Origin: Candidatus Obscuribacteraceae bacterium
GTDB taxonomy: Bacteria > Cyanobacteriota > Vampirovibrionia > Obscuribacterales > Obscuribacteraceae
NCBI GenBank assembly: GCA_044226015.1
Contig: JBGAHS010000006.1
Span: forward strand, 416,001 to 480,000
Direction: 5' to 3'
DNA: 64,000 nucleotides
Part shown: in pieces, positions 40,115 to 48,734 of the stretch
Position numbering within the stretch: position 1 is the first letter of the stretch
Layout: the number at the start of each line of letters is the position of its first letter
The notes under the pieces: model-generated
The model's database searches: none
Seen by the model: only the letters and a program-made list of their open reading frames with translations
Told to the model about the DNA's origin: nothing
Program-made: the position numbers and the translations under genes

Positions 40115-41311
40115 CTAATCAGTTTTCCAGCCTAACTCACGCAACGCTTCATCAAATGAGCATCGCATCTTTTGCGTGTAGGCTAAAGCTGTGAGCGCCT
40201 TCTCTTCGTCGATGTATCCTTCGCGCAGAAGGAACTGACAGCGCAAACCGTTATGAAGCGTAGTTTCCTCGATCTGTCCAGTAGCGACAAGAATTTTTCC
40301 GAGAAGCGAAGTATTCGACATCGTCAACTGCATGGCCTCTTCGATGTCACCCTGATTCAAGACTCCAGCGCGCTTAAACAACTCCCCAAGTCGCAATGTT
40401 TCAGCATGATTTGTGGTTGGGTTCAGACCGAGTTCGGAGACCGCTTGCGGAAGCTCTTTCCCATTCACTACAACCTGCTTCAATAATTCACCAGCAGCAA
40501 CGGGTGGAACGCCGCCTCTGCCAACCATTTCCTGAATCGTAAGCGCCGTCTCGATTGCTTTTTGACTCAACAATTTCTTGTCAATCAAAATTTGCCCCAT
40601 AGGCTTATCAGTTAGCAAACAAGATTCAAGGGCATTCAAAAGGTCTTGCTCATTTATCAAACCTGACATCACAAGAATGTCGCCGAGCTTGATTTTACGC
40701 GATCCTTCCTCATAGTGAATGCCTTGCTCCATCAGCGATCGTTCAATGCTTATTTGGCGCTTGTGCGCAGCGTTCAGTCCTGCAACAGCTTGTTTGCGAT
40801 CGATGCGCTTGTCACGAATCAAAACTTGAGCATTCAAAGCTGACCAGAGAATTGAATGCGTAACAAAATTATTCACTATGAGAACACGACCCAATGGCAT
40901 CTGCGTCTTCACAGCAATACTCAAGCACTCTCTCAATTGCTCCTTACTGATGACGCAAGCTTCCATAAGCAAATCGCCCAGTTTGGTGAACACCGTATCT
41001 TCTTTTGGAGTCCATCCACATTTTGCAAGAGCAGCCCCGGCACTGAGCCCCTCTGTTTTCACCAGACTGAGAGCAGCTTTGATAGTTTCTACATCGACTA
41101 ATTTATCTCTGTGTAATGATTGCATCTCCACAGCAGCTACAAGAACTGGTGTGCTGAGAGTTCCTAACATAACAAGAGCTTTTCCTAGCGGCATTGACAG
41201 CGCAGAGCCAATCTCCATAGCTTGTGCCATCTGCTCATCGGTCACCAAACCGGCAATCATCAACAAAGAGCCAAGGCGAGCACCGCTTTTTTCTTCCTCA
41301 GTCTTTCCCAT
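40115..41311 (-). CDS. Stand-alone protein of four tandem MshEN-like modules (candidate c-di-GMP receptor)
   Basis: RLGSLLMIAG, KLGDLLMEAC, KLGDILVMSG and RLGELFKRAG, each followed by a second (P/L)(L/M)GxxL half. Confidence 0.8.
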   Translation of the reverse strand: MGKTEEEKSGARLGSLLMIAGLVTDEQMAQAMEIGSALSMPLGKALVMLGTLSTPVLVAAVEMQSLHRDKLVDVETIKAALSLVKTEGLSAGAALAKCGWTPKEDTVFTKLGDLLMEACVISKEQLRECLSIAVKTQMPLGRVLIVNNFVTHSILWSALNAQVLIRDKRIDRKQAVAGLNAAHKRQISIERSLMEQGIHYEEGSRKIKLGDILVMSGLINEQDLLNALESCLLTDKPMGQILIDKKLLSQKAIETALTIQEMVGRGGVPPVAAGELLKQVVVNGKELPQAVSELGLNPTTNHAETLRLGELFKRAGVLNQGDIEEAMQLTMSNTSLLGKILVATGQIEETTLHNGLRCQFLLREGYIDEEKALTALAYTQKMRCSFDEALRELGWKTD

Positions 41312-41474
41312 CCTGCAAATCCCGGTTATCCGAAACACTCATCTGATTTTAACGCGAACGATAAGTAAAATCCTTCAAACTACGCCAACACTCTGTAAAA
41401 CAGTACTTAATATATGGTCATTGCAGTCGTCAAGCCCCTTTTCATTTAGATACTTAAGACCAGACGACGCATTT

Positions 41475-41504
41475 TTCGCAGCTAAGCGCCTTGCACCGTA
41501 TAAT
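41475..41504 (+). promoter_or_regulatory. Sigma70-type promoter of argS, probably leaderless
   Basis: Perfect TATAAT at 41499-41504, 6 nt before ATG 41511; no Shine-Dalgarno. Confidence 0.6.
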
Positions 41505-41510
41505 ACCCGC

Positions 41511-43265
41511 ATGAAAAACACTATAACCACAATTAAATCCCGGCTGAAAGAAGCTGCAGTCAAATCTTTCGGTTCTGAACTTGAAAACATCGAGCCTCAG
41601 GTCGATGCTGCAAGTAATCCGACATTCGGCGACTTCCAGAGCAACATTGCTATGGTTTTGACCAAACAATTGAAAAAACCACCAAGAGCAATCGCGGAAG
41701 CAATCGTTCAGAATCTCGAAAGCGACGGCATTTACGATACCCCATCAGTTGCGGGTGCAGGCTTCATCAATTTGAAGCTAAAAAAAGAATACCTTGAGTC
41801 ACAGCTGAACGCTATCAAAAAAGACCCCAGACTAGGCATCGCTAAAGCAGCTCCACCAAAGAATGTGGTAGTTGATATGTCCAGCCCCAACATAGCAAAA
41901 GAGATGCATGTAGGACATTTGCGCTCTACAATCATTGGTGATGCGATAGCAAGAGCATATGATTTTCTCGGTCATAACGTAATCAAAGTGAACCATGTAG
42001 GTGATTGGGGAACGCAGTTTGGAATGCTTATTGCGGAGTTGAAAGAAAAATATCCGCAAGCACTAACTCAACAAGATGCTCTCGACCTGGGCGATTTGGT
42101 CGATTTTTATAAGCAATCGAAAAAGCACTTTGACGAAGATGCCGATTTCAAGGCACGCGCGCATCAGGAAGTAGTAAGCCTTCAATCAGGAAATGCCGAT
42201 AGTATCAAGGCATGGAAACTCTTATGCAATCAGTCGAGAAAAGCATTCGAGGAAATCTACGACATACTCGACATTCGCAATTTGAACGAACGCGGCGAAT
42301 CCTTTTATAATGACATGCTTGCCGACACAGTTGAAGGACTGGTTGAGAAAGGCATTGCGGTTGAAGACCAGGGGGCTCTCTGCGTTTTCCTCGATGGCTT
42401 CACCAACGAAGAAGGTAAACCGTTCCCTCTTATCGTCAAGAAAAAAGACGGCGGCTTCAATTATGCCACCACCGATATAGCAGCAATAAGACACAGAGTT
42501 GGCCCCCCAGATAATGCTGATGAAATCATTTACGTTGTTGGTGCAGAGCAATCATTACACTTGCAGATGATTCGCCTGGCTGCAATCAAAGCCGGTTGGT
42601 TGCCTGAAAGAGTTCGCACCGAACACGTGGGCTTTGGTGCAGTTCTGGGTGAAGACGGAAAGAAACTGAAAACCAGGTCAGGTGAAACAGTTCGCTTGAA
42701 AGACTTGCTTGATGAAGCAGTGGCTCACGCACGAGAAGACATAGAATCACGGTTTCAAGACAAAGAAAGCGCTGAGTGGAAAGATTCTATAGCACAGCTG
42801 ATAGGAATAGCCGCAGTCAAATACGCAGACTTGAGCTTGAACCGAATGACCAATTACATGTTCAGCTTCAAAAAGATGCTAAGTCTTCAAGGAAATACGG
42901 CACCATATATGATGTATGCATATGTGCGCGTGCGAGGCATAGCCAGAACTGCTGGCATCAAATTTGAAGAAATCGATGACAGCGCCAAAATGAATCTAGA
43001 TAGCCCTCAAGAATTGGAATTGGCTAAACAGATTCTGAAGTTGGATGAAATTCTGGACACTGTAACTCGCGAGTTCATTCCTAACCGAATATGCGAATAT
43101 ATTTTCGAATTGAGCCAGAAATTCAACCAGTTTTATGAGAATTGCCCGGTGCTTAATGCAGAAGAACCAACGCGTACATCGCGCCTTCTACTTTGTGACA
43201 TGACCGCAAGAACCATCGAAACAGGTATGAGCCTGCTAGGAATAAATGTGCCAGATCGCATGTAG
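41511..43265 (+). CDS. argS: Arginine--tRNA ligase
   Basis: FGDFQSN, GAGFIN, SSPNIAKEMHVGHLRSTIIGD, NHVGDWGTQFGMLI, KTRSG, GNTAPY. Start is ATG 41511, not 40878. Confidence 0.98.
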   Translation: MKNTITTIKSRLKEAAVKSFGSELENIEPQVDAASNPTFGDFQSNIAMVLTKQLKKPPRAIAEAIVQNLESDGIYDTPSVAGAGFINLKLKKEYLESQLNAIKKDPRLGIAKAAPPKNVVVDMSSPNIAKEMHVGHLRSTIIGDAIARAYDFLGHNVIKVNHVGDWGTQFGMLIAELKEKYPQALTQQDALDLGDLVDFYKQSKKHFDEDADFKARAHQEVVSLQSGNADSIKAWKLLCNQSRKAFEEIYDILDIRNLNERGESFYNDMLADTVEGLVEKGIAVEDQGALCVFLDGFTNEEGKPFPLIVKKKDGGFNYATTDIAAIRHRVGPPDNADEIIYVVGAEQSLHLQMIRLAAIKAGWLPERVRTEHVGFGAVLGEDGKKLKTRSGETVRLKDLLDEAVAHAREDIESRFQDKESAEWKDSIAQLIGIAAVKYADLSLNRMTNYMFSFKKMLSLQGNTAPYMMYAYVRVRGIARTAGIKFEEIDDSAKMNLDSPQELELAKQILKLDEILDTVTREFIPNRICEYIFELSQKFNQFYENCPVLNAEEPTRTSRLLLCDMTARTIETGMSLLGINVPDRM

Positions 43266-43266
43266 C

Positions 43267-44067
43267 ATGGCAAGATCAATTTTGAAGCAAACCATAACTC
43301 TGCTCTTTTTGCTTTTGCTTACAACTTCACTGGTAGAAGCAAAAGACGGAGTCAATGCTGCCTCTAGCAATGGAGCGGAGCAAAGCCTGATACTCCAGGG
43401 TGGCTTAAAAATGAGCGAGAAGATAATGCCAGTTCCGCTCAATTTGAAAAGCGGAAGTTCGTTTTACAGCGCAATGATAAGTGACAACGAAGAAGAGGAT
43501 GAGTGGATCAAATTACCATCCTGGCGCGCTGGTATTTTCGAAAGACATACAGCATCACGCCAACGAAAAACTGATAGCAACAAATCACACGTCTTTAGGT
43601 CCAAATACGTGACACCTGAACAAGTGCTACAGAAGGATCGCAATGGTGGCATATGGCAATATTTGACGGCGCCAGAGCACCAGAGCATCGATATCGGAGC
43701 CTATGTTCAATACTCGAAGATTACGGATAACGAGATAATTGAATCATCCGAAAAAGAAGAACTAATGCGCACAAAATTCCTTTCTCTCAAGGTAGACAAA
43801 ACCAGCGGGAAAATTTTGGAAGTGTTTCAGCAAGAACAAATGGACTATTTGACACCCCTCAGAAAAGGGAAAGGATTTCACCAGGATAGCTACGTCAAAT
43901 GGTTTGATGAGACCGGACAGGCAAGCAGCAAACCAACAGATGAAATGTCTGCGGACATGATACTCGTAAAACCCTATAGCCTGAGCAACAGCTACAAAGG
44001 CAAAGATATGCGTGCAAGCTTACGACAATATCTAAAGAATCATAATCTAGAAGAATTGATACCTTAA
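43267..44067 (+). CDS. Exported hypothetical protein
   Basis: Signal peptide; ATG 1 nt after the argS stop. Confidence 0.8.
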   Translation: MARSILKQTITLLFLLLLTTSLVEAKDGVNAASSNGAEQSLILQGGLKMSEKIMPVPLNLKSGSSFYSAMISDNEEEDEWIKLPSWRAGIFERHTASRQRKTDSNKSHVFRSKYVTPEQVLQKDRNGGIWQYLTAPEHQSIDIGAYVQYSKITDNEIIESSEKEELMRTKFLSLKVDKTSGKILEVFQQEQMDYLTPLRKGKGFHQDSYVKWFDETGQASSKPTDEMSADMILVKPYSLSNSYKGKDMRASLRQYLKNHNLEELIP

Positions 44068-44094
44068 TAAAGGAAAAGAGAAGGGAATCTAAAT

Positions 44095-44881
44095 TTGGAA
44101 TTGAGTGAATCTCGTTAAGGTTCGATGGCTAAATCGCCTTCTGATATAGATCGAACTAAAAGTCGATATACATTCTGCTTTCGAACCGATTCATGCGACC
44201 GTCCATCGAGCAAACTTCAACAAGCTCAATGCTTTGCGGACTTTGCGGAATTCCGCAAGAGCTTTGCGTGAAAGCTAATTGTTCAAACTCAGTGCAAAAA
44301 GCATAATCAACTCATCCTCGAAATGAGATGAGTTCGAGCAACCCTGAAGCTTTGAACTCCTCTCGCGAGAGGACAACTAATTCGAACTGACAAACAAGTT
44401 TTTTTACCCGGTGGATCCGTGCTTTGCCGGTTGCCCCGAGACGCAACCGGCAGGGCACAGACTCTGAAAGATCAGTCGAAAAAGTTGAGTGTTGCCGAGG
44501 GCGCCGCAATCGGCACAATTGCAGCGATCTGTTGCTCTGAGAACCGCCTACCTCTGAAGGCATAAAGCGCACTGTCCTGGAGAGTTGCAATGTTTTGGCT
44601 AGACAGTTGAATGGGAGCATCTTCTGTCAAAGCCGCGGCGAGTGAATTGATACTCTTCAATTCACTTCGAAATTCGGATTACGGGGAATAATCCGAACGC
44701 AAGGCGATTGGACCGAGCTAGAGCCATTGCTCACCATCGCAGCTGTGCCTCTAGCGTAGCAGAGGGGAATCTGCTTCACTAGAGGCGCAGCAAATCAAAG
44801 AGCTATCTTTGATTGATTATAAGAAGGAAACGATCGTTTGAAGAATGAGTGCTGGGTAGCAGAGCCCAGCACTCATTCTTC
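44095..44881 (+). ncRNA. Candidate large structured non-coding RNA (array of consecutive hairpins), family unassigned
   Basis: About 15 adjacent stem-loops and no convincing ORF; G-U wobbles are consistent with the + strand. Boundaries approximate. Confidence 0.55.
44840..44881. terminator. Perfect 17-bp hairpin, probably a bidirectional 3' end
   Basis: GAAGAATGAGTGCTGGG-tagcagag-CCCAGCACTCATTCTTC, 40 bp past the stop of the convergent 1270-aa gene. Confidence 0.7.
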
Positions 44882-44921
44882 TATTACGGCTAAGCACAAT
44901 TACATGCCAGAGAATAACAGT

Positions 44922-47900
44922 TTACTGCATCCCGTTCTTTGTCTGCTTCGCTTGCCAGGCTTCGCGGAATTTCTTGACGCTACTATTGAAATCGTCAATC
45001 ACATTGGCATGAAGCGAAATTTGGAGTGGTTCCATCAACCTCTGTCCTAATGCAATTCTCATTTCAGTTCTGTTTCTAAAATCTCGCGTCAATGCTGATG
45101 AAAATTCAGGGACAGTTATGAGTTTGTTGATTCGACCGATCAATTGAATTCTGTCACTCTCTGTTCCCCACGAAGAGAAATTCTCGATATGCTGCCGAGC
45201 CTGAAGCAGATATTCTGGAGACTTGGTGCCAAGCAAAAGTCCGATTGCTTGTGTTCTTACAGGCGAGGAAGTATCAACCAAGTTACTCGCTAATTCATAA
45301 GCTCGATCAGGGTTAACTTTGAAGATTGTGTCCAATGCCTCAGTCGAGAACTTACTCCTTTCTTTGAGTCTGGCGATCATCAAATCTTCAGGCATGAGTT
45401 CACGAGCAGCGGCAATGAGTTTAGGATCGCCAGAGGCACCCAAGACGCGCAGGTTGCTGGCAGCAGCGGAAAACGTTTTGGTATCGGATATCCAGGCTCG
45501 ATAGTCAACCTTTGACTGAGCTTTAGCAGCATCGTAAGAGGCTCGCAAAGCATCATCATATAGTTCAGGTTTCTTTTCTGCAATTCGCTCGAGTAATGTT
45601 TGCATTGCCAGTTTGCTGATGTGATCTGCATTTGGATTTGCAGCCAACCGTTTTGCTTGAGCTAGTACCAGATGCTGCAGCGGAGTTGGATCCTTCATCA
45701 CCTTAAGTTGACTTACAATCTCAGGCATGCCACGGAGTAACCATGACGGCATATCTTGATTAACCAGCATGCGAAGTGCCATTATTTGCGCTGGACCATT
45801 AGACAATGCCAGACGACGACTAGCAAAATACTGTTCATTCGTTCCGTGTATTGGACTGATAAGTTCAAGGGCAGTTTTTGCACTTTCTGGAGCGCTGCCA
45901 TTCATGGCGAGTTGCTCTAAAGCAGAAATGGGAAATAATCTTGCTGCCAATTCTTTGCTGGCACCTGGCTCTGCAAGAGCTTTTGCCAGTTCGAGACTGG
46001 CCTTGTGATAAGGCATAGCTGGGTCTAGAATATTCGCTACAGAATACGTATTTAGAAGTTGAACCATCTTCTCGTAGTTTCTTGCGCGCAAGGCGAATGA
46101 TTGTGGGTCTACAGCCTTCATCAACTCAAGACTCAAGACAACCCTTGCAACTACATCGCGACTAAAATTGCCGTCAGCTGGTCTTGCATCGGCAGCAGCT
46201 TCTAGCGCTTTCTTATCGACAAGTTTTTCAGCAAAGGCTCTGCTCTCTGGAGACGAGTACAACATTCGAACTAAGGAGGTGCTTTCAAGAACATCTTGAA
46301 TTTTATGGCTTGCAAGCTTTTCATTTAGGCTCTTCACTGCCTTAGGCAGCACTTCCGTATCAATATAATCGAGCCTCCTTGTCAGCTCTTCTCGCCCCTT
46401 GCTATTCTCACTTTCGGGAGCCTTCGCCATACTTGCCCTGAGCGCACTACCTATGATGGCAGTTCTTATAGGTGCCTTCTCAGCAAGAGTTAGAAAATAC
46501 TCGGGAGAAGGATCCAAAACGGCTTCGCCGAAGCTAGTTGCCCAATTTTCGCTGCTGTTCCTTTTGCCGTAAGAGCGCAAGACAAACGGTTCGAGTTTTA
46601 TTGCTTGCGAATAGGCCGCAAAGGTATGGGGATACTCAGCTTGCATAAGATGAGTCCATTCGTGATTTAGAACCGTTGGAACTTCGTTGAATACCTGGCT
46701 GCTTTCTTTGAATAATCGAATTCGTCCGCCACCACTACTTGTCGCGTCAGCCAGGGTGTCTTTAGAGGCACTGTAAGCTAAAGAACTGTCATCAGTCAAA
46801 ACTAGTAGCTGATTGAGCCTGCGATTAGGAAGCCTGTCCAAATATTGTCCAAAGTACTCAGGCAACAAGTGGTCGCGATAAGGAGAAGTAAACAATGTTC
46901 TCCTGGCTTCATTTATTTGCTCGCGAATTTCTGGAAGCATAGATGGTGACAAGGTAGCTGTCCGGCGCAAATCGCGCAACTCATCAAGCCTGGCGGCGTG
47001 AGTCTCCTCGACAGCGATTGTCTGAGTTCGCTCACGCAGCCCAGAGAGGAACTTGTCGAAAGTGTCCTGATTGATAGTTCGCTCTTTTAACTGCTCTCTT
47101 CTATCGGCAAGCTCTACTGTCTGCTCTTGCGACATAATTCTGTAGACACGCACATTGAGATTTGATTTAACCAACGGAGGAAGGTCTTCTGGCTTCGCAT
47201 CTGCTGTAACAGCTCTGTGTTCCATCCGCAAACTCGTCCGTTCATACATCTGTCCGGAACTAGCTGGCAATATTCTCAACTCAGCCTGCCATGGCTGTTC
47301 CATTCTTTCAGCAGACATATTCAACGCGAGGTAAGTGTCGATAGATTTGGCTTTGACAATAGCAGAATCATATCCAATGCCCAAAAGCTTGTTCCATCTG
47401 TTGCCAGTGCTGTCCACAGACTTGCCATAATTTTCCTGCAAGCTCCAGACCCGAAACGGCGCAGTTTCGGCACTGCGGTGCATGAAGCCAGATGATTCAA
47501 GGCTGCCATAAGGAACCCAGATTGAATTGGCCCCTCGCTTTTCACTCACGGACTTTTCGCTAAAAATGCGACCATCTTCGAGCTGCCAGAATTTCCCTTT
47601 TTCTGTTTCGTACTGTTTTGCACCGTTAAGTGCACCTTCTTCTGGACGATTATTTTCTCCAATCTTTTTTGCCACCAGAGACTCAATGAGATTTGCTTTC
47701 ACAGGTGCATTATCATTGGCAAGATTGAACTTCATTGGTGATCTTGAAACAATTCCTATGCCATCAATCTGTTCAGTAATAGAAACTGGTTCGTTCATTG
47801 CTCTAGCGACATTCGAGTCTAGAGGCACTTCTTTGGGACTGACTGTCTCTGCTTGGGCGCTTACAATCTTTTCCGGAGATAAGCCAGCTTCATTCTGAGC

Positions 47901-48734
47901 TTGTGCCTGGCGGCTGATGTGACGGCTGGCAATTATGCCACCTGGTGCTGCGGCTAGCCCTGAACTCAGTCCTTCCAGAGTTCCTCGATAGACAATTTCG
48001 CCTAAATCATAATGTCCAGACTGATACTGCCGTTGTGCCTCTGCAGATGAACCAGAGAGAAAACCGAAACTTGCACCAGTTGAGATAGTCTGCATGACTG
48101 TACTGCGCTCAAGCAAACCTCTGGTGAGCACGTTTGCTGACTTCATTATCAGAGCTGAACCAGAAAACACAGCTATATCCGTAGCAAGCGCAGGCAAATT
48201 CACTGCACCAGAGGCGGTATTATACAAACCACGAGATAGACTGAACTCTCGATTCTCATCCAAGTAGCTCTGTCGCGTTAAACCGCCATCTATCAATCTC
48301 GAACTAATACCAAAGCTCATCGCCTTAGCGGAGATTTCTAGCGGCTTCCCACTCAAAAACTTGGGTGCTAAGCCTGCCTCGACCAGCCCATTTACCCCGC
48401 TAAAGTTCACTCTTCCGAGCAAGTCGAAACTGCCTTTGGTCAGGGCACCTTTGCCCGCCCCCAAAGCAAAATCGTTCAACTGGTCCGAGAGAGCATCTCC
48501 CTGCTTCGCTTCATCGAGCCCCGCGAGGACAGCAGCCGCACCATAACCAACGGCGGCAGCCCTTCGACTTATCGATGGCAAAAACAGCGGAACAGTTTTG
48601 GCGAATTGAGCTAAATAACCTGCCAATTCATTGCGAAAGGAAGAGCTGCTGTCGTCAGCTGGATGCGCGACGGTGTCGATGGCATTTTTGATGCCAGATT
48701 TCAGCAGAGAATCTTTTTCTCGATTCAGTTCCAT
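44922..48734 (-). CDS. Large toxin/effector-like protein: Gly/Ala-rich hydrophobic N-terminus, LF-like HExxH protease domain, helical C-terminus
   Basis: 1270 aa, no Sec signal; LNHEWTH plus SYGKRNSSENWA. Confidence 0.7.
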   Translation of the reverse strand: MELNREKDSLLKSGIKNAIDTVAHPADDSSSSFRNELAGYLAQFAKTVPLFLPSISRRAAAVGYGAAAVLAGLDEAKQGDALSDQLNDFALGAGKGALTKGSFDLLGRVNFSGVNGLVEAGLAPKFLSGKPLEISAKAMSFGISSRLIDGGLTRQSYLDENREFSLSRGLYNTASGAVNLPALATDIAVFSGSALIMKSANVLTRGLLERSTVMQTISTGASFGFLSGSSAEAQRQYQSGHYDLGEIVYRGTLEGLSSGLAAAPGGIIASRHISRQAQAQNEAGLSPEKIVSAQAETVSPKEVPLDSNVARAMNEPVSITEQIDGIGIVSRSPMKFNLANDNAPVKANLIESLVAKKIGENNRPEEGALNGAKQYETEKGKFWQLEDGRIFSEKSVSEKRGANSIWVPYGSLESSGFMHRSAETAPFRVWSLQENYGKSVDSTGNRWNKLLGIGYDSAIVKAKSIDTYLALNMSAERMEQPWQAELRILPASSGQMYERTSLRMEHRAVTADAKPEDLPPLVKSNLNVRVYRIMSQEQTVELADRREQLKERTINQDTFDKFLSGLRERTQTIAVEETHAARLDELRDLRRTATLSPSMLPEIREQINEARRTLFTSPYRDHLLPEYFGQYLDRLPNRRLNQLLVLTDDSSLAYSASKDTLADATSSGGGRIRLFKESSQVFNEVPTVLNHEWTHLMQAEYPHTFAAYSQAIKLEPFVLRSYGKRNSSENWATSFGEAVLDPSPEYFLTLAEKAPIRTAIIGSALRASMAKAPESENSKGREELTRRLDYIDTEVLPKAVKSLNEKLASHKIQDVLESTSLVRMLYSSPESRAFAEKLVDKKALEAAADARPADGNFSRDVVARVVLSLELMKAVDPQSFALRARNYEKMVQLLNTYSVANILDPAMPYHKASLELAKALAEPGASKELAARLFPISALEQLAMNGSAPESAKTALELISPIHGTNEQYFASRRLALSNGPAQIMALRMLVNQDMPSWLLRGMPEIVSQLKVMKDPTPLQHLVLAQAKRLAANPNADHISKLAMQTLLERIAEKKPELYDDALRASYDAAKAQSKVDYRAWISDTKTFSAAASNLRVLGASGDPKLIAAARELMPEDLMIARLKERSKFSTEALDTIFKVNPDRAYELASNLVDTSSPVRTQAIGLLLGTKSPEYLLQARQHIENFSSWGTESDRIQLIGRINKLITVPEFSSALTRDFRNRTEMRIALGQRLMEPLQISLHANVIDDFNSSVKKFREAWQAKQTKNGMQ

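Follow-up and report, generated by a model that had tools for sequence, protein, structure and literature searches.

A candidate genus-restricted, multi-hairpin RNA in a convergent gene gap of a Candidatus Obscuribacteraceae bacterium

In this study, we analysed a hairpin-rich, gene-free gap in a 64,000-nucleotide (nt) stretch of DNA (hereafter the window) from a Candidatus Obscuribacteraceae bacterium (contig JBGAHS010000006.1). All coordinates are positions in this window; the source genome is designated G000 and its relatives carry other G numbers. The gap comprises 854 nt (44068-44921) between two converging open reading frames (ORFs). We tentatively favour, at somewhat less than even confidence, the reading that it encodes a genus-restricted, promoter-driven multi-hairpin RNA of ~570 nt on the + strand, which would have a free-standing regulatory or scaffold role. 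An earlier reading made from the letters alone (the sequence-only reading) had proposed a single RNA of ~790 nt. This did not hold, because the gap is not one uniform RNA: its left ~240 nt consist of the 3' spacer of a gene and a promoter-like DNA module. The remainder is a candidate for a new RNA family restricted to one genus. To our knowledge, the regulatory RNAs of the non-photosynthetic bacteria related to cyanobacteria are almost unexplored. If the favoured reading is true, a large structured RNA in this group would be under a regulated promoter of its own. Its hairpin architecture would be kept while the sequence turns over fast, and the 5' end of a protein gene may have been its origin.

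The sequence-only reading had described the gap as packed with stem-loops and as the longest gene-free gap in the window, and both observations were confirmed. A repeat search found 13 inverted-repeat pairs at the places that this reading had named, including a perfect 17-nt pair (44840-44856/44865-44881), 22-nt arms of 86% complementarity (44742-44791), 19-nt arms of 84% complementarity (44416-44461), and a perfect 10-nt pair (44641-44666). Perfect hairpins with a stem of at least 8 base pairs (bp) and a loop of 3-12 nt were counted across G000 in 40,889 intervals of 800 nt. The locus ranked 1st with 6 perfect hairpins, and the best interval elsewhere contained 4. By crude ORF calls, the runner-up among the gaps of the window measures ~551 nt. 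The expectation that the gap folds better than shuffled sequence was also borne out. Against 20 dinucleotide shuffles per strand, the minimum free energy (MFE) of the whole gap was -309.6 kcal/mol on the + strand (shuffles, -245.9 +/- 7.2; z -8.9) and -314.8 kcal/mol on the - strand (z -10.9). For the segment 44314-44890 on the + strand, the z-score was -9.26 (100 shuffles), and the centroid fold of this segment consisted of local hairpins only, with no multi-stem junctions.

When the conserved hairpin 1 (44419-44458) was left out, the remaining tails still folded with z-scores of -6.45 in the window, -5.28 in G007 and -3.16 in G002, and with MFE per nt of -0.399, -0.350 and -0.345, respectively. 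Eight coding controls, which included genes located behind other copies of the promoter module, gave z-scores from -0.94 to +1.20. As a second control, we used 24 random G000 gaps of 450-700 nt, taken from 333 such gaps. Their mean z-score was -1.6 and their best MFE per nt was -0.329.

The proposed RNA is preceded by a promoter-like module on the + strand. Its upstream part (44233-44284) contains a perfect 16-bp operator-like palindrome (44243-44258), half-site-like repeats and a -35-like hexamer TTGTTC (44279-44284). A -10-like hexamer CATAAT (44302-44307) lies 17 nt past the -35-like hexamer. Only positions 44242-44467 of the gap matched the DNA of relatives, in five of the seven other genomes of the same genus; the gap had no DNA match in 33 genomes of other genera, families and orders. 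We aligned ten copies of the module from six same-genus genomes. The palindrome was near-invariant, with further conserved letters, and CATAAT was present in 8 of the 10 copies, the other two differing by one or two bases. The spacer between the hexamers was fixed at 17 nt in length and unconserved in sequence, and a second apparent hairpin beside the palindrome loses its pairing in some copies. Between same-genus genomes the module was 88-93% identical, compared with 69-72% for the neighbouring argS DNA. A near-invariant palindrome, two hexamers and an unconserved spacer would be expected of a regulated promoter and not of an RNA hairpin. The palindrome, which the sequence-only reading had taken as one of the RNA stems, is therefore best read as a DNA site belonging to the promoter-like module and is not evidently an RNA hairpin. 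From the position of the hexamers, transcription is predicted to start at ~44313-44316.

G000 has one copy of the module, with no + strand gene downstream. If the module is a promoter, it can therefore yield nothing but this RNA or a very small peptide. In G005 and G003, the first 42 nt of the matching sequence recur two or three times, 1.2-1.4 kb apart. Every module copy in these two genomes precedes a gene on its own strand that encodes a low-complexity protein rich in Gly, Ser, Lys and Glu. These genes are arranged in tandem, share an N-terminal motif and have their own module copy each, as seen at locus L014 of G005 (611-1408 and 2259-2852) and at locus L015 of G003. Together with the module, they look like a small regulon, which appears limited to G005 and G003. 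A search of G000 for the genes behind the other module copies detected none, and one of the queries was positive in G003 as a control. Because the G000 module is unique in its genome, serves no + strand gene and has no detected module-linked genes, we propose that the RNA would have a function of its own. The combination of palindrome and promoter also provides a handle for finding the regulator.

The 5' part of the predicted transcript (44309-44373, + strand) is poorly conserved. It contains an 8-bp hairpin (44309-44334), a 16-nt palindrome (44358-44373) and scattered conserved columns. The following region (44400-44461, + strand) comprises a T-run, 12 nt of conserved single-stranded sequence and hairpin 1, a 16-bp stem at 44419-44458 that lies ~100 nt past the predicted start. 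An RNAalifold analysis of hairpin 1 over four genomes gave 16 pairs, two of which showed compensatory double changes. Two pairs alternate between U-G and U-A. Hairpin 1 thus fits an RNA of the + strand, since the - strand would have C-A mismatches in place of these exchanges. The sequence-only reading had taken G-U pairs in the long stems as a sign of the + strand; this was supported for 44419-44458 and failed for 44742-44791, which has one wobble on the + strand and one on the - strand. Likewise, the covariation that it anticipated in relatives was found in the two compensatory pairs of hairpin 1, but beyond this hairpin column-wise covariation was weak.

A covariance model of hairpin 1 matched four of 101 family genomes, and these four were all training sequences. 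Hairpin 1 was also present in a 305-nt contig of metagenome run X6, in which its flanks have diverged. Fishing in metagenomes with a degenerate hairpin-1 pattern returned 63 loci. One of them was a weak match to the model (L157, 18.9 bits, E 0.007), and the rest were at chance level.

Past hairpin 1, BLAST detected no similarity in the relatives. A MAFFT alignment of the tails from the window, G007 and G002 showed colinear motif blocks. Hairpin A (44493-44515, + strand) has conserved arms and a variable loop and is colinear in the three genomes; its local folds reached shuffle fractions of 0.04-0.10. It is followed, near 44550, by a short single-stranded block that is also conserved. Hairpin C (44597-44634, + strand) has a two-part stem and carries the heptamer GGGAGCA in its loop. 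Its stems differ in all three genomes, its shuffle fractions were 0.007, 0.000 and 0.010, and its distance from hairpin A is 119 nt in the window and 116 and 117 nt in the other two. At the positions colinear with hairpin D (44640-44667, + strand; 10 bp and one wobble) and hairpin E (44673-44697, + strand; 9 bp), the relatives also carry hairpins, but their stems are different. Hairpin F (44742-44791, + strand) has a long stem, made of arms of 22 nt, below a G-rich apical loop, and its local fold had an energy of -35.5 kcal/mol (z -7.7). Its counterparts in G007 and G002 are also long and present the heptamer in their loops, and the shuffle fractions in the three genomes were 0.000, 0.003 and 0.000. 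The three tails contain five copies of the heptamer in all, each of them at hairpin C or F. A composite pattern made of the arms of hairpin A, a gap of 80-110 nt and the heptamer was searched in 104 family genomes. It was found once each in G000, G002 and G007 and nowhere else, and a reversed control pattern gave 0 matches. Homologues, for which the sequence-only reading had suggested a search of related genomes, thus exist as colinear hairpins in two other species, but the conservation is limited to three or four genomes of one genus.

The end region (44793-44881) contains a 9-bp hairpin (44793-44814), a 12-nt palindrome and a perfect 17-bp hairpin (44840-44881). A strong terminal hairpin is found at similar distances past the -10 hexamer in the three genomes, at ~574 nt in the window, 637 nt in G007 and ~580 nt in G002. 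The terminal hairpin of G007 is terminator-like on the RNA strand and stands before the next gene, and that of G002 has a 13-bp stem. In the window, the 17-bp hairpin starts 41 nt past the stop of the convergent 1270-amino-acid (aa) gene, compared with a genome median of 36 nt for hairpins at gene 3' ends. We predict from this position that 44840-44881 is both the 3' end of the + strand RNA and the terminator of the 1270-aa gene, and the terminal hairpin probably serves both strands.

According to the favoured reading, a protein bound at the palindrome would control a rightward + strand promoter. The transcript would extend over ~44314-44885, would remain untranslated and would be ~570 nt long. 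It would fold during transcription into about ten independent stem-loops and would end at the 17-bp hairpin. The RNA may then act alone as a riboregulator or scaffold, not as the leader of a gene, under joint control of the palindrome-binding protein. A bolder version of this proposal is doubtful. It would make the element a member of an undescribed class of 'hairpin-chain' RNAs of ~570-640 nt with a tightly conserved promoter under operator control, born from the leader and 5' end of a protein gene and now maintained as an independent riboregulator. The stems would evolve freely while their order, their spacing and a few loop motifs are held, in a genus that is non-photosynthetic, without Rho, related to cyanobacteria and living in activated sludge.

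We compared the gap with known RNAs and repeats. At gathering thresholds, Rfam gave 0 matches in the whole window, in agreement with the earlier failure to recognise RNase P, transfer-messenger RNA (tmRNA), signal recognition particle RNA, T-box or group I/II intron signatures. In the E-value mode, 14 sub-threshold matches were obtained for 43900-45100, mostly to hairpin models of microRNA precursors. All were far below threshold, the best reaching 24.7 bits against a gathering threshold of 94. ARAGORN found no tRNA or tmRNA. The 854-nt gap is single-copy in G000, and its direct-repeat families are only two-copy chance matches of 10-22 nt. Phage and plasmid collections had no match to the gap. 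Since the gap is single-copy, lacks a real repeat family and has no phage or plasmid match, repetitive extragenic palindromes (REP), miniature inverted-repeat transposable elements (MITE) and arrays of clustered regularly interspaced short palindromic repeats (CRISPR) were ruled out, the first and last as the sequence-only reading had argued. A mobile element was ruled out on the same findings and on the lack of mobile-element genes nearby. Taken together, the observation made by that reading was confirmed and its interpretation was partly supported.

Several findings weigh against the favoured reading. Fifteen sequencing runs were listed with the locus and none of them was RNA; we therefore infer the transcript, its strand and its ends. 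The - strand folds equally well or better overall, and folding energy does not choose the strand. Three of the 24 random gaps had z-scores of -4 or lower, one of them -7.4, so that the tails are unusual in structure, yet not unique. The promoter scan called a sigma-70-like promoter in G007 (9 of 12) but none in the window (8 of 12), where the -35-like hexamer matches 3 of 6 positions. The RNAalifold consensus was weak for hairpins C (-4.2 kcal/mol) and F (-3.7 kcal/mol) and had many broken cells, to which misregistration of the arms by MAFFT contributes. The homologues number only three or four and come from one genus, so that covariation statistics are weak. An unbiased count of 4-mers in the apical loops showed no dominant motif, the best G-rich one having three occurrences (3.1-fold). 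In G006, a same-strand 277-aa gene begins ~75 nt past hairpin 1, which is part of its leader. ORFs of 65 aa in G007 and 71 aa in G002 open past hairpin 1 with an ATG behind a Shine-Dalgarno-like site, and a same-strand gene follows downstream.

These arrangements in G006, G007 and G002 make an origin as a cis-leader or gene relic plausible, and an origin as a leader appears likely. In the main rival explanation, the module and hairpin 1 are a promoter and a 5' leader whose gene was lost or decayed in G000. The rest would be a functionless relic, or at most a cis-leader in the relatives. It agrees with this that the window lacks the start region present in G007 and G002, that the locus past argS is variable, and that both flanking genes come from large paralogue families. 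However, the argS DNA is only ~70% identical between these genomes and a relic should therefore be unalignable, whereas three species retain the motif blocks, their spacing and the hairpins. G000 has an intact promoter module, the stems of the window are perfect over 9-17 bp, and a terminator-like site stands ahead of the next gene in G007. The intact genes behind the other module copies are unstructured (z +0.5 to +1.2), but the tails are structured. A search for a decayed gene, in which the genes of the other module copies were compared with the three gaps by tblastn, gave weak low-complexity matches with a best E of 0.007 in a very small database. We consider an orphaned leader or gene relic unlikely on balance; if it were true, the locus would merely be a leader remnant in a variable region and of local interest. 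In another rival explanation, the hairpins between the convergent transcription units form a stack of terminators or insulators that stop or slow polymerases from both sides in a bacterium in which Rho was not found. Each hairpin would then act individually, on either strand, instead of as a part of one RNA. A search of G000, an assembly that is 92% complete, revealed no Rho RNA-binding domain, and the control search was positive in 9 of 14 named genomes. Perfect hairpins in G000 are densest in convergent gaps (1.46 per kb, compared with 0.89 in tandem gaps, 0.44 in divergent gaps and 0.23 in coding DNA), which is ~6 times the coding density. A second stack occurs at C3:336424-336911, where three different perfect hairpins of 12-13 bp with 6-nt loops fill a ~490-nt gap between convergent genes. 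Both strands of the present gap fold equally well, and its last hairpin is placed where the terminator of the 1270-aa gene would be expected. On the other hand, none of the six perfect hairpins was followed, on one strand or the other, by a T-tract (at least 5 T within 8 bases), whereas 29% of 853 gene-3' hairpins in G000 were. A terminator scan of the gap gave one terminator-like site (- strand, 44334-44309) against 0.9 expected. The other gaps of the genome have at most four hairpins, the homologous hairpins of G007 and G002 are not located in convergent gaps, and the conserved promoter module is left unexplained. A terminator stack is therefore improbable as an account of the whole gap.

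Two further explanations were given very little weight. The inverted repeats may act as double-stranded or cruciform DNA, either as protein-binding or recombination sites or as products of template switching. Several repeats are indeed perfect and strand-symmetric, and 44243-44258 is best read as a DNA site. Their sequences are all different and single-copy, though, with no integrase, transposase or phage gene nearby and no match to phages or plasmids, and hairpin 1 speaks for RNA by its U-G/U-A exchanges. DNA-level palindromes are thus a very improbable explanation for the series as a whole. We find it similarly hard to credit that the gap encodes one or more small proteins, such as a + strand frame ending at 44565 or a 102-aa ORF on the - strand (44312-44620). 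ORFs of 20-102 aa, including the latter, exist in the gap, and around hairpin A a 9-residue peptide-like match is common to + strand frames of the window, G007 and G002. Yet Pfam searches with four gap ORFs found no family for three of them, and for the fourth, of 62 aa, found a match to SACS (E 0.11; 12.8 bits) that was below the 32.8-bit cut-off. The similarities obtained by tblastn were at chance level. The lengths, starts and stops of the ORFs differ between genomes, and the frame in the window has no Shine-Dalgarno site. Relative to the ORFs that open past hairpin 1, GGGAGCA falls in frame 2 in G007 and in frame 0 in G002, and the stop positions differ. As the conserved heptamer falls in different frames with differing stops, the constraint is not on a protein. 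The absence of a conserved protein-coding frame, on which the sequence-only reading depended, was thereby upheld. Weighing these alternatives, we still favour the free-standing + strand RNA.

The gap is flanked on the left by a 273-aa ORF (43246-44067, + strand) with a signal-peptide-like start and on the right by the convergent 1270-aa ORF (44922-48734, - strand), whose stop is at the gap edge. Between the 273-aa ORF and the module lies a spacer (44068-44232, + strand) that is not conserved and has no match in the relatives. It contains an imperfect long hairpin (44119-44187), the region of which folds locally with -15.7 kcal/mol on the + strand and -18.5 kcal/mol on the - strand, and it is possibly the 3' end or terminator region of the 273-aa gene. 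Neither flanking protein had a Pfam match. The 1270-aa protein, described as toxin-like in the sequence-only reading, shows an HExxH-type motif only, and this label was not sustained. The 273-aa secreted-looking protein belongs to a paralogue family expanded in the genus, with 1-15 matches per genome. Similarly, the first ~290 residues of the 1270-aa protein reappear in many other proteins of the genus, as an expanded paralogue family.

The argS gene (40878-43265, + strand) is directly upstream of the 273-aa ORF region, and the region downstream of argS is variable among relatives. In G007, G002 and G006, the module match is found 50-100 nt past the argS stop. The 273-aa gene would thus be an insertion in the G000 lineage, since the module match directly follows argS in these three genomes. 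The argS ORF has 795 aa, yet the relatives align from about residue 205 on. A 407-aa ORF on the opposite strand (40115-41338), with a weak DUF4388 match, overlaps the first 460 nt of the argS ORF. The true start of argS is probably well downstream of 40878. Other genes around the locus encode a helicase-nuclease, an SLH protein and two-component sensors, and no integrase, transposase or phage gene was present among the neighbour genes checked.

The source assembly has 8.19 Mb, and a search of it found no photosystem reaction-centre family. The nearest named relatives of its ArgRS protein are from cyanobacterial metagenome-assembled genomes (69% identity). Together with the lack of a Rho RNA-binding domain, this would fit a bacterium that is related to cyanobacteria but non-photosynthetic. 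DNA of the same strain was present in sludge, bioreactor and river metagenomes. A contig of run X2, from another study, was near-identical to the window and had an identical gap sequence. Its differences from the window were confined to the argS/273-aa ORF junction (43256-43312) and amounted to 5 substitutions and 18 deleted letters. The metagenome contigs gave no variants usable for covariation. Two other places in G000 deserve mention. The most extreme of the 24 random gaps, a 661-nt convergent gap at C6:698021-698681 with a z-score of -7.4, may hold another structured element. At C1:1130613-1130819, one short palindrome with 8-10-bp arms and a 4-nt loop is present three times in one gap, ~60-120 nt apart, and this arrangement looks like repeated operator sites.

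We finally compared the candidate with known systems. OLE, GOLLD and ROOL have a complex multi-stem junction architecture that is conserved across many species. The sequence-only reading had placed the candidate in this size class, and they do share a length of several hundred nt, a non-coding nature and strong structure. OLE, GOLLD and ROOL are large ornate RNAs (PMC12286853). The candidate differs from them in its local hairpins without multi-stem junctions, in having no Rfam match, and in being conserved in a few short blocks in 3 of 104 family genomes, which represent three species of one genus. The candidate is therefore not placed among RNAs of the GOLLD, ROOL and OLE kind. Intrinsic and bidirectional terminators are similar to the candidate in that the 17-bp hairpin lies 41 nt past a convergent stop and that hairpins are enriched in convergent gaps. 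However, the internal hairpins lack T-tracts, and six perfect hairpins exceed the number in any other G000 gap. Sponge small RNAs (sRNAs) of the CsrB/RsmZ type have a regulated promoter, a chain of independent stem-loops and a terminator hairpin at the end. The candidate resembles them as a predicted promoter-driven chain of stem-loops, in which some apical loops are G-rich with GGA, but it is longer and has neither an Rfam match nor a dominant loop motif. CsrA (PF02599) was not found in the 92% complete G000, and the control search was positive in three named genomes. A CsrB-like sponge is not supported, as CsrA was not found and no loop motif dominates. A cis-regulatory leader or riboswitch stands directly upstream of a same-strand gene that it controls; such a position was found in G006, is ambiguous in G007 and G002, and is absent from the window. 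The candidate is comparable to long structured 5' leaders of mRNAs in that hairpin 1 is part of a gene leader in G006 and that a same-strand gene follows in G007 and G002. In the window, however, the next gene is convergent, and in G007 a terminator-like site precedes the next gene. These comparisons suggest that the candidate would work most like a multi-hairpin regulator of the sRNA type or a long structured leader.

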